DNA of 42,486 nt from a virus (lineage: Duplodnaviria > Heunggongvirae > Uroviricota > Caudoviricetes): positions 1-42,486 of IMG/VR virus record IMGVR_UViG_2541047683_000004, one strand, 5' to 3'. Positions 26,326-27,414 of this stretch are shown piece after piece. Position numbers and translations under genes: made by a program. The notes beneath the pieces are model-generated. The model was not told the origin of the DNA. It ran no database searches and saw nothing but the letters and a program-made list of their open reading frames with translations. How positions within the stretch are numbered: position 1 is the first letter of the stretch; the number at the start of each line of letters is the position of its first letter.

Positions 26326-26414
26326 ATCAATGACTCCGTACGCAATTAAATTATTACCAATTTAACCACATATGATTTATTTATCGTAGATAGTTGACAT
26401 TTAACGCACAAATT

Positions 26415-26431
26415 ATTACCTTTCAGGTAAC
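26415..26431. promoter_or_regulatory. Operator-like palindrome (copy 7) upstream of late structural operon
   Basis: attacctttcaggtaac just upstream of candidate minus-strand promoter TTGTGC-N17-TACGAT. Confidence 0.55.
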
Positions 26432-26752
26432 CAAAGAGTTCATTCCGGTTACTAACCTGACTGGCTTGTCGTTAAATTGAACGGGTGGAGTGAGCTTTTA
26501 TTTTGAGCAGTACGGCGTATGGCACATGCTCCGATAGCGGTCTGGATACGTTTAAGGGGCGCCCTCCCTTGCTCGGGCAAACGAACCAGGTAGCCGGAAT
26601 GTGCAAGTCGAGCGGTTTTATTCCGCGCACGGGGATTCACCATCCCGGCGATTCGGTGTGACGCCTCGGAAGAGACGAGGGTACAACGATGAGAGCATTT
26701 ATGGAGCCGCGACAAAGTGTGGCGCCTTAACAGGCTAAGTGCTCTCAGCGTT

Positions 26753-26829
26753 GTGGCATTAGCTCAGCTGGACAGAGCAACCGCCTTCTAAGCGGTTGGT
26801 CGCAGGTTCGAATCCTGCATGCCACGCCA
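26753..26829 (+). tRNA. tRNA-Arg, anticodon UCU (reads AGA)
   Basis: 77 nt cloverleaf: acceptor GTGGCAT/ATGCCAC, D arm GCTC/GAGC, anticodon stem ACCGC/GCGGT with loop CTTCTAA, T arm GCAGG-TTCGAAT-CCTGC, discriminator G then CCA. Confidence 0.85.
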
Positions 26830-26992
26830 GAATCACGCCTAAGGACCGTGATGCCAGAAGTTCCAGGTGCTTGGCGGTGATGGTTTCCCTTGAAGGGCTA
26901 TCACCGCCCTTTTTACAGCAGGACGCCATTGCGATGACTTCATGCTGTAAACCAGTACAGCCACGGAAGGCATAACTCATTGCTTCCAGTTC

Positions 26993-27016
26993 GCCCGGTT
27001 CGCCGGGCATTTTTTT
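26993..27016 (+). terminator. Intrinsic terminator after tRNA
   Basis: gcccgg-ttcg-ccgggc followed by T7. Confidence 0.6.
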
Positions 27017-27027
27017 AAGGTGAGATT

Positions 27028-27324
27028 ATGAGCGAAACATCAACAGTATCTTTCTCCACTGCTTTGCCATCACTCAAAGATGGTAAGCGCATTGCACGTG
27101 CCGGATGGAATGGCAAAGGCATGTATCTGCAACTGGTTAAGCCACCGCAATCGGCCACTCCGAACGATTGGCGATTTGACGTTACATGCGGTGACGAGTA
27201 TACATTTGTACCTGGCGTTAAACTTCTACCGTGGATTGGGATGAAAACTGCTGACGGTTGCTTTGTACCGTGGCTGGCATCTCAAACCGATCTGCTATCT
27301 GATGACTGGATTGTAATTCAATAA
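27028..27324 (+). CDS. Small phage protein of unknown function (98 aa)
   Basis: AAGGTGAG RBS; opposite strand to surrounding operon; followed by terminator. Confidence 0.55.
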   Translation: MSETSTVSFSTALPSLKDGKRIARAGWNGKGMYLQLVKPPQSATPNDWRFDVTCGDEYTFVPGVKLLPWIGMKTADGCFVPWLASQTDLLSDDWIVIQ

Positions 27325-27328
27325 CACC

Positions 27329-27340
27329 GTGACATGTCAC
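27329..27340. repeat. Perfect 12-bp palindrome GTGACATGTCAC (copy 2 of 3)
   Basis: Exact palindrome between convergent genes. Confidence 0.6.
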
Positions 27341-27343
27341 AAA

Positions 27344-27370
27344 CAGCCAGCCTATGAGCTGGCTTTGTTT
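27344..27370 (+). terminator. Intrinsic terminator (possibly bidirectional)
   Basis: cagccagc-ctatga-gctggctt followed by T-rich tract. Confidence 0.5.
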
Positions 27371-27414
27371 TATCCTCACCAGAGGATATCAACGACATTA
27401 TCCCCACCAGCGGA

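Follow-up and report, generated by a model that had tools for sequence, protein, structure and literature searches.

A covarying structured RNA adjoins tRNA-Arg(UCU) in a phiV10/epsilon15-like prophage and recurs in lambdoid and P1-type phages

The 42,486-nt stretch of viral DNA analysed here (the window; IMG/VR record IMGVR_UViG_2541047683_000004) is a phiV10/epsilon15-like prophage, in which a self-contained plus-strand islet lies amid the portal and terminase genes, both on the minus strand. Read rightward, the islet holds a promoter-like region, a conserved segment of ~240 nt, a tRNA-Arg(UCU) and a 98-aa gene, with terminator-like hairpins on either side of that gene. A preliminary description of this DNA, made from its letters alone, had placed the tRNA, the terminators and the 98-aa gene on the strand opposite to terminase and portal, with which the gene coordinates agree, and had wondered whether the 400 bp upstream of the tRNA might hold another RNA. 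We find that it does: 26511-26752 is almost certainly a real structured RNA on the plus strand. The tRNA and the 98-aa gene, which is Tad2-like, are of known kinds (the tRNA is annotated in some relatives' records and was therefore already known), whereas the structured RNA has gone without annotation, has no counterpart in Rfam and has not been recognised in published work. Its parts are:

26511-26680, plus strand: conserved RNA core, defined by covariation counts and by covariance model R1
26513-26518/26528-26533, plus strand: helix P1
26522-26527/26599-26604, plus strand: putative pseudoknot PK1, invariant
26537-26544/26587-26594, plus strand: helix P2
Within the core, plus strand: variable hairpins P3 and P4
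26589-26607, plus strand: invariant 19-mer GGTAGCCGGAATGTGCAAG, inside the core and unique in the window
26632-26635/26643-26646, plus strand: helix P5
26638-26641/26655-26658, plus strand: putative pseudoknot PK2, CACC:GGUG, changed to AACC:GGUU in five sequences
26664-26668/26676-26680, plus strand: helix P6, with variants CCUCG/CGAGG, CCUGG/CCAGG and GCCGG/CCGGC
26682-26755, plus strand: closing stem P7 (lower part 26682-26688/26749-26755, upper part 26691-26700/26737-26746), enclosing a cassette at 26701-26736

The core of ~170 nt, with ~45 invariant positions, comprises six helices and the two putative pseudoknots; with the P7 closing stem besides, the element comes to ~240 nt and eight helices and stops exactly at the 5' end of the tRNA, the last three pairs of P7 using tRNA nucleotides G1-U2-G3. 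For 28 diverse copies, RNAalifold drew 47 pairs, of which 17 showed compensatory double changes. Our hand-built model adds the two pseudoknots, which are beyond what RNAalifold can draw. On a full-length alignment of 28 sequences, 97.3% of its cells were paired, with double-sided changes in 20 pairs (103 cells); none of 500 shuffles reached any of five measures, and pairing fell to 30-47% when partners were slid by 1-3 columns. An alignment of the core in 47 sequences gave 98.0% paired cells and double-sided changes in 12 pairs (89 cells), with 0 of 500 shuffles reaching four of the five measures and 35 of 500 reaching the remaining one, ‘further pair types’. The closing stem, with 17 pairs, was 98% paired and had double-sided changes in 6. 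Covariance model R1, built on the core, recognised a single copy in the window (132.9 bits, E=3.4e-42). Two G.U pairs are conserved, U31.G86 in 28 of 28 sequences and U8.G18 in 26 of 28; as these would be A.C mismatches on the opposite strand, the plus strand is the functional one, as it is for the tRNA. The short helices that had been noticed upstream of the tRNA are far beyond chance and form part of a covarying structure kept in hundreds of genomes.

The stretch upstream of the tRNA (26346-26752) had also been called GC-rich. This holds for its 3' part only: the GC content is 57% in 26511-26752 and 25% in 26346-26429, and comes to 47.9% over the whole stretch, the mean of the window being 48.2%. 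Neither ARAGORN nor Rfam called a second tRNA or a tmRNA in it, in keeping with the earlier failure to fold it into one, and none of its open reading frames (ORFs) has a Pfam family match, in keeping with the earlier remark that no ORF there was convincing. Were there a small protein-coding gene in 26452-26738, it would have to be one of the ORFs of 52 and 45 aa on the plus strand or of 87 and 52 aa on the minus strand, and some relatives do carry an annotated hypothetical protein across the element (mEp460 gp37). Such a gene is scarcely credible. Besides the lack of any Pfam match, substitutions in the helices are compensatory and not codon-periodic, P3, P4 and the cassette contain indels that are not multiples of a triplet, and the annotated ORFs vary in strand and frame between genomes.

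We searched for the element beyond the immediate relatives of the window. In a sensitive search with 26340-26752, the 3' 240 nt matched at 77-82% in unrelated phages, namely the lambdoid mEp460, cdtI, 2H10 and Stx2c- and Stx2a-converting phages, P1/P7/D6/SJ46, the Klebsiella phage SopranoGao and a Stenotrophomonas phage. The invariant 19-mer was found in more than 119 IMG/VR contigs at the least and in 24 species-representative genomes, from Escherichia, Citrobacter, Klebsiella, Enterobacter, Kosakonia, Kluyvera, Buttiauxella, Phytobacter, Erwinia and others, and the retrieved loci form 48 clusters at 90% identity. It also occurs in two assemblies labelled Firmicutes: an Oscillospiraceae contig (L138), where the rest of the element is absent and the 19-mer looks like a chance match, and a Bacillota metagenome-assembled genome (L150), which groups with the enterobacterial copies, so that mis-binning of the contig is probable. 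Among complete E. coli genomes, 1,840 of 5,426 carry the element, on chromosomes and on P1-like plasmids, with no annotation beneath it. A scan of Rfam 15 at E values up to 10 gave no match in 26346-26752, and the scan of 16 related loci returned only tRNAs, and a known RNA family was accordingly rejected for both; an exact-sequence literature search matched the conserved motifs in none of the papers that it covered. A strongly covarying RNA with putative pseudoknots, which about one in three sequenced E. coli genomes carries and which also occurs in Stx-converting, P1-type and phiV10/epsilon15-type phages, has escaped annotation, and the lesson for annotators is that an islet passing for ‘phage tRNA plus spacer’ may be a polycistronic locus of non-coding RNAs. 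When the neighbouring ORFs were clustered all against all, only context genes emerged (cI-like, portal, terminase), with no universal partner. With R1, mEp460 has a single copy, as does the window, so that a second, diverged copy after pR or elsewhere was discarded; the HK022 genome gave no match, and epsilon15 gave a decayed remnant of 33 bits. That remnant (L157, 2619-2723, minus strand) has large internal deletions, lacks the tRNA and adjoins a 100-nt segment annotated as an RNase III site.

The close relatives of the window fall in or near the genus Uetakevirus (epsilon15-like temperate podoviruses). Their islet region is 97-98% identical in phiV10, O157 typing phages 9 and 10, vB_EcoP_ZX5 and TL-2011b, and 75-82% identical in Salmonella SPN1S/SPN9TCW and in Klebsiella prophages. 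A common layout unites them: terminase large subunit gene (minus strand), accessory gene (plus), tRNA-Arg (plus), ~420 unannotated bp, gp3 (minus) and portal (minus). Around the structured RNA, the window has the following features:

24425-26104, minus strand: portal gene (gene list)
26119-26325, minus strand: 68-aa gp3-like gene (epsilon15p03 homologue), adjoining the divergent promoter region on the left; it has no Pfam family and is kept in all relatives
26348-26358, no strand assigned: AAATTATTACC, first copy of an 11-nt direct repeat (repeat search), operator half-site-like and invariant in Uetakevirus relatives
26394-26422, plus strand: predicted early promoter, -35 TTGACA (26394-26399), 17-nt spacer, -10 TACCTT (26417-26422), kept in relatives
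26414-26428, no strand assigned: putative repressor operator palindrome TTACCTTTCAGGTAA, overlapping the -10
26430-26510, plus strand: transcript leader, a long imperfect hairpin (RNAfold, -22.1 kcal/mol)
26753-26829, plus strand: tRNA-Arg(UCU) with encoded CCA (ARAGORN, Rfam), the second, stem-closed cargo slot of the locus
26832-26852, plus strand: trailer hairpin AUCACG-N9-CGUGAU directly 3' of the CCA, with invariant columns among relatives
26873-26908, plus strand: terminator-like hairpin 1, a 14-bp stem then CTTTTT (terminator scan)
26993-27008, plus strand: terminator-like hairpin 2, GCCCGG-TTCG-CCGGGC then ATTTTTTT (terminator scan)
27028-27324, plus strand: 98-aa Tad2-like gene (Thoeris anti-defence 2/AcrIIA7 family; Pfam PF11195), a swappable protein-cargo slot
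27345-27364, plus strand: terminator-like hairpin 3 at the islet end, facing the convergent terminase gene (terminator scan)
27415-28890, minus strand: terminase large subunit gene (gene list)

Where the preliminary description had two terminators, we count three strong plus-strand hairpins; its placing of a terminator after the tRNA and another after the 98-aa gene stands. Hairpin 3 is a rho-independent terminator in the phiV10 annotation. Hairpin 2 is kept, with compensatory variants, across Uetakevirus loci, and it abuts the Shine-Dalgarno sequence of the Tad2-like gene, which leaves no room for a separate promoter.

The region 26346-26430 is almost invariant in an alignment of E. coli, Salmonella and Klebsiella relatives, and from its sequence we infer with some force that a repressor-controlled early promoter fires rightward at ~26430, a plausible embodiment of the promoter that had been suspected upstream of the tRNA. 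The palindrome over its -10 fits the consensus ATTACC-N5-GGTAAT, as do seven sites annotated as repressor-binding in epsilon15. About ten palindromes of this type are scattered over the window (further TTACC-N5-GGTAA palindromes lie at 5920, 7043, 7136, 10211, 10797, 33854, 33916, 36203, 36915 and 36973), and they suggest that several prophage transcription units may be under direct repressor control. The islet would then be a repressor-controlled early unit, standing outside the logic of the late region that surrounds it, a point that the preliminary description had missed. In the leader (26430-26510), comparison with loci L004 and L158 (phage LLS) revealed a degenerate copy of a ‘GAAAGCGCACYCC...GGRGUGCGCUUCC’ cassette stem, which is intact in a Klebsiella relative and in LLS.

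Repressor control is also the common thread of the contexts in which the element is found elsewhere. Of 47 representative loci, 23 have a cI-like repressor gene directly before the element and in its orientation. In mEp460, cI has its own terminator and is followed by two OL-like operator palindromes (TTGCATATCTCGCAA and TTGCATAATGCGCAA) that match an OR site (TTGCTTAACGCGCAA) and overlap a pL-like promoter, TTGCAT-17-TATCTT. The element begins ~40 nt downstream, so that transcription from pL would meet it first, at the place taken by nutL in lambda and by putL in HK022. In mEp460, Stx2c and Stx2a_WGPS2, the element, a tRNA-like module and a strong terminator precede yfdP/yfdQ-like genes, and no N-type gene is annotated or evident between pL and those genes. 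In P1, the element stands between trnI and ban, downstream of trnI and inside the C1-controlled ban operon, the common P1 form being without P7. Thus, the contexts in all three phage groups place the element in a repressor-controlled early transcript. Elsewhere in mEp460 (L006, 206-407, minus strand), the antirepressor gene is preceded by a genuine C4 antisense RNA (83.6 bits) and by an isrK-like RNA (67 bits), a pair that indicates a P1-type immI module there too.

An RNA next to the element has been described before. Song et al. (2020) defined a 193-nt small RNA, sRNA-17, by rapid amplification of cDNA ends (RACE) and Northern blotting in an mEp460-like prophage of E. coli K1 RS218, and saw no Rfam match for it (PMC7719688). 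Their supplementary primers, together with the alignment, identify sRNA-17 as the tRNA-like module directly 3' of the element, ending at the terminator (~2740-2935 of the mEp460 locus). The locus type and the strand are those of the window; the difference is that sRNA-17 is a module downstream of the element, a slot in which the window has tRNA-Arg and no sRNA-17. We therefore rejected the idea that the element is itself the published sRNA-17. The RACE 5' end falls at CGUUGUGG, which is the 3' boundary of the element and the base of an acceptor-like stem, as would fit RNase P-type processing, and the Northern probe detects the plus strand (PMC7719688). In the same study, the amplicon for quantitative reverse-transcription PCR (qRT-PCR) begins at the 5' end of the element and spans the downstream RNA, which points to one contiguous transcript, and the fragment used as the ‘promoter of sRNA-17’ in electrophoretic mobility shift assays (EMSAs) with ArcA is exactly the structured element (PMC7719688). 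The sole experimental paper that touches the element has read it as promoter DNA. When the adjacent RNA module was deleted in E. coli K1, 48 host genes shifted in expression (PMC7719688), and the sRNA-17 phenotypes published for meningitic E. coli call for re-reading.

That the segment acts as DNA, be it a promoter or ArcA-binding region, a packaging site, or a replication or recombination site, has in its favour the use of this segment as a promoter and the binding of phosphorylated ArcA (ArcA-P) seen in EMSA by Song et al. (PMC7719688), as well as the packaging site proposed in the preliminary description. We consider it very improbable. Protein-binding double-stranded DNA evolves otherwise than by compensatory changes and strand-specific G.U pairs, the forward primer for qRT-PCR anneals at the 5' end of the element, so that the element itself is transcribed, and the GTTA repeats invoked by Song et al. 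are not kept in the window. The packaging proposal in particular finds no support: the element is also found after pL in cos-type lambdoids, in the P1 ban operon and in many unrelated prophages, contexts that, like the islet, are unrelated to packaging, and its orientation is always that of the local transcription unit.

The element carries one hypervariable part, the cassette enclosed by P7 (26701-26736 in the window), which spans 10-98 nt in the aligned set and up to ~250 nt elsewhere. The 28 copies carry 23 cassette types. Unrelated cassettes (33-39% identity) are found on cores of 96-99% identity, and near-identical cassettes (86-97%) on cores of only 72-82% identity, a mismatch which indicates that cassettes are exchanged horizontally as units. 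The cassette of the window recurs in mEp460 and in one Klebsiella genome. A cis-antisense role was tried and rejected, as the cassette has no excess complementarity to nearby transcripts: against the downstream RNA z was 0 or above, and the variable centre in mEp460 was marginal (z = -2.1). In loci L104 and L141, tandem extra P7-type units (CAACAGGUAAGAGCAUU...AGUGCUCUUUCCGUUGUGG) lie between the core and the tRNA-like module of slot 2, so cassette stems can be arrayed.

A second cargo slot follows the element. In relatives, its module has a tRNA-like layout: a terminal stem, then AAU and a hairpin in D-arm position (GCGCA-GGCUGA-UGCGC), a hypervariable centre, and a hairpin in T-arm position (GCCGG-AGAUCAGCA-CCGGC), both hairpins covarying. 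The slot is filled by a genuine tRNA-Arg in the window and in three other clusters (GUU, then GUGGCAU...AUGCCAC, then GCCAGAAUCAC), by another tRNA in L132, and by a tRNA with a 55-nt insertion in L098 (Rfam, 43.9 bits). At the boundary, GUUGUGG(UG) has a perfect complement of 7-10 nt, (CA)CCACAAC, located 70-290 nt downstream in ~30 of 36 loci and giving an acceptor-like stem there; in Uetakevirus the complement is followed by C-CCA-AUCAC. Cargo regions contain 0.42 T-arm-like hairpins per kb, flanking DNA 0.011 per kb. The preliminary description had missed that the tRNA is one interchangeable cargo of a larger modular RNA locus. The cassettes are swapped between phages like accessory genes, beside tRNAs, tRNA mimics and an anti-Thoeris gene. 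The modules are separable, given that phage LLS keeps a P7-like cassette stem and a tRNA-like module in its pL leader while the core is absent (best match 8 bits, inside a gene). A long, apparently covarying stem lies 3' of the terminator and before a yfdP-like gene in mEp460 (~2936-3045; arms ACAAAACAGAGAAGAGCAUCACC...GGUGUUCUUCUCUGUUUUGU) and in LLS (~31800-31905, minus strand; arms ACACAAGAGACAAGGGCAUCACC...GGGUGCCCUUCUCUGUUGUGU), enclosing a conserved GGGCUCAUAACCCAAUCC, and may be a further RNA module. Directly 3' of the core in a BUCT709-type phage (L010, 2131-2250, plus strand) is an RprA-like Rfam match of 50.2 bits, below the threshold of 70, which is probably a likeness of terminator hairpins.

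These observations suggest how the locus may work. The promoter overlapped by its operator (26394-26428) would, on strong sequence grounds, mark out an early unit whose repression is lifted by induction or infection, in parallel with the position of the element after the cI-controlled pL of lambdoids and inside the C1-controlled ban operon of P1. Cleavage by RNase P at 26752/26753 would probably part the structured RNA from the tRNA. As the lowest three pairs of P7 use tRNA nucleotides 1-3, lower P7 and the acceptor stem are mutually exclusive, and formation of the acceptor stem would have to melt those pairs. We think it probable that the islet is an early, repressor-controlled unit processed at the tRNA junction.

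The same junction is compatible with a maturation or stability leader, in which the element would be a 5' domain without an independent function, there to shield the precursor and to offer its tRNA or tRNA-like cargo to RNase P, and thus a platform for expressing captured cargo of tRNA type. An acceptor-type stem at the element end, the mutual exclusion of lower P7 and acceptor stem, and a cargo enriched in tRNAs and tRNA mimics would all be expected of it. However, most bacterial and phage tRNAs do without a leader; ~45 invariant positions, two pseudoknots and 72-82% conservation across unrelated phages exceed any passive need; in P1 the element follows trnI instead of preceding it, and commonly lacks P7; and LLS has the tRNA-like module without the core. 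We judge this explanation improbable. The core as a general tRNA companion was abandoned, since only Uetakevirus and P1-type copies abut a tRNA; the core must thus be more than a leader for tRNAs.

In position and processing logic, the element resembles known promoter-proximal phage leader RNAs (put; c4/CI), and when tested for membership it departs from each of them in some respects. The c4 RNAs of P1/P7 and the CI RNA of P4 are temperate-phage operon leaders matured by RNase P via an acceptor-like stem. Shared with C4 (RF01695) are the position as a leader RNA in a temperate-phage regulatory operon and variable specificity elements. An acceptor-like stem stands at the 3' junction of the element, where the published RACE end falls, and may serve maturation by RNase P there. 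The element differs in being much larger, in leaving the C4 covariance model unmatched and in having no complementary target that we could find nearby; the true C4 detected elsewhere in mEp460 is a positive control showing that the search works. ROOL and GOLLD are structured phage and prophage RNAs of unknown function that often adjoin tRNA genes. They are 500-800 nt long, come mainly from Firmicutes and other phyla and have Rfam entries, whereas the element is enterobacterial, without an Rfam match and equipped with an exchangeable cassette.

The main rival to a function in trans is that the RNA acts in cis, as a processive antitermination or anti-pausing RNA of the kind exemplified by HK022 put: the nascent RNA would bind its own polymerase and allow it to read through the intrinsic terminators that follow, here those at 26873-26908 and 26993-27008 before the Tad2-like gene, and in N-less lambdoids the one before the early-left operon. 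The element opens early units, and in N-less lambdoids it occupies the site where the mechanism of early antitermination is at issue. It is promoter-proximal in early operons of three phage groups; the core-carrying lambdoids mEp460, Stx2c and Stx2a_WGPS2 lack an N-type gene at this site; an intrinsic terminator lies 0.2-1.2 kb downstream in ~33 of 47 loci; the ribosome-binding site of the Tad2-like gene abuts a terminator with no promoter between them; and extreme sequence conservation would fit binding to a conserved host machine. Casjens and colleagues, moreover, guessed at put-like, RNA-mediated antitermination in the related phage LLS, which lacks N (PMC12315714).

Several findings fit this poorly. 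LLS itself is without the core though it keeps the other modules, which weakens the case for the core as antiterminator of N-less lambdoids generally. The single copy in mEp460 leaves none after pR, phiv142-3 retains the core although no protein gene follows it, the RNA 3' of the element in lysogens stops at the terminator, so that termination does occur, the P1 element lies 2.3 kb from the promoter of its operon, and hypervariable, exchanged cassettes would have no role. The put RNA of HK022 is ~70 nt long with two stem-loops (PMC9378689). Like the element, whose promoters are here read from sequence, it lies just downstream of a repressor-controlled early promoter in an N-less lambdoid, but it is present in two copies (putL and putR) against one in mEp460 and the window, and the element is ~240 nt long, pseudoknotted and cassette-bearing. 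Differing in size and fold, and with no R1 match in HK022, the element is not identical with put. The comparison with a lambda nut site, a single-stranded boxA followed by a boxB hairpin, points both ways. Many copies have a boxA-like UGCUCUUU followed by a covarying hairpin at the 3' end, which could speak for antitermination; that boxA-like sequence is, however, the paired 3' strand of the covarying stem P7, the window has GCUCUC in its place and the tRNA in place of the hairpin, and no cognate N gene lies downstream in mEp460, Stx2c or Stx2a_WGPS2. Antitermination is a serious explanation that we nevertheless hold to be unlikely.

We favour a trans-acting function in counter-defence or host takeover, and regard it as possible, with some doubt. 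The released RNA of ~240-320 nt may be stable and act in trans early in the phage cycle; the invariant, pseudoknotted core would perhaps serve as a scaffold for some conserved factor of host or phage, and the exchangeable cassette, which like slot 2 often carries tRNA T-arm mimics, as a payload that bears specificity. The locus might in this way be a counter-defence or host-takeover RNA platform expressed together with a spare tRNA and, after terminator read-through, an anti-Thoeris protein. We favour such a function because cassette exchange resembles the turnover of accessory genes, tRNAs and their mimics abound in the cargo, a spare tRNA and an anti-Thoeris gene lie next door, and deletion of the neighbouring module alters host gene expression (PMC7719688). 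The RNA also persists where there is no protein gene downstream: in phiv142-3 the core is intact (139 bits) and the tRNA is kept together with both terminators, but only an 8-codon stub is left in the protein slot.

Weighing against this account are a number of observations. The single-sequence fold of the window copy is not significantly more stable than shuffles (z = -1.84), which makes the structural evidence comparative. PK1 and most of PK2 never vary, so that complementarity alone speaks for them, and PK2 has one covarying pair only (5 of 46 sequences). Helix P1 in the window has a C.U mismatch at 26516/26530 (pair 6:20), reading GCTCCG against GCGCCG in phiV10 and most copies, the sole non-canonical cell at that pair in 28 sequences. 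A strict sigma-70 consensus scan did not call the promoter at 26394-26422, which accordingly stays a reading of the sequence, and the lack of excess cassette complementarity makes the payload role a conjecture. The decay of the epsilon15 copy shows that the core is dispensable in some relatives, and phiv142-3 is a single genome that may reflect a recent deletion. As a whole, then, the explanation is one that we put forward tentatively.

A bolder reading, which we find rather doubtful, is that core and cassette make up a new class of programmable phage RNA, in which the scaffold would recruit a conserved cellular machine (RNA polymerase, RNase P, or a tRNA-handling or defence enzyme would be candidates) and the exchanged cassettes and tRNA-like cargo would retarget or decoy it. 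If true, about a third of E. coli strains would carry an RNA-only counter-defence, or antitermination, system. The RNA family offers a concrete, easily mutated object for testing antitermination against a decoy or scaffold function.

The 98-aa protein encoded at 27028-27324, whose identity the preliminary description had missed, is by homology a Tad2-like Thoeris anti-defence protein. It matches PF11195 (DUF2829) over residues 8-97 (E=1.9e-24, 86.4 bits, cut-off 25) and solved Tad2/AcrIIA7 structures at E=4e-15 to 8e-12, and thus resembles them over its full length; what sets it apart is the position of its gene behind two terminators, inside an RNA locus. In relatives, this slot after terminator 2 is occupied by other accessory genes or by none: a Tad2-like gene is found there in the window and in one Klebsiella phage, a member of the N4-gp49/Sf6-gp66 family in phiV10 and epsilon15, and unknown proteins in SPN9TCW and EC.W1-9.

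The tRNA-Arg(UCU), finally, is real and phage-borne, as had been proposed. It is the only tRNA that ARAGORN calls in the whole window (as tRNA-Arg(tct), plus strand), it scores 71.7 bits with the Rfam tRNA model (RF00005; gathering score 29), and it has anticodon UCU, A20 (GGA in the D-loop) and a 3' end ...CCACGCCA with the encoded CCA. It also differs from the host gene as stated: prophage-free genomes such as K-12 MG1655 match it at only 84.5%, the match being to their own tRNA-Arg. On average, E. coli uses AGA ~2-3 times per 1000 codons. Over 36 long ORFs of the window, the frequencies per 1000 codons are 7.9 for AGA and 4.8 for AGG. These codons cluster in tail and internal-virion genes, and the portal, terminase and coat genes have none; decoding of rare AGA codons by the phage tRNA is plausible. 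In these respects it is like other argU-type phage tRNAs for rare codons, being complete and unlike the host copy; it differs from them, and from anti-defence tRNAs such as the T5 tRNA-Lys directed against PARIS, in being one interchangeable cargo, predicted to be co-transcribed with a structured RNA in a modular RNA locus. The trailer hairpin that follows its CCA is found in relatives 3' of tRNA-like modules as well (...CCAAUCACGCCU).

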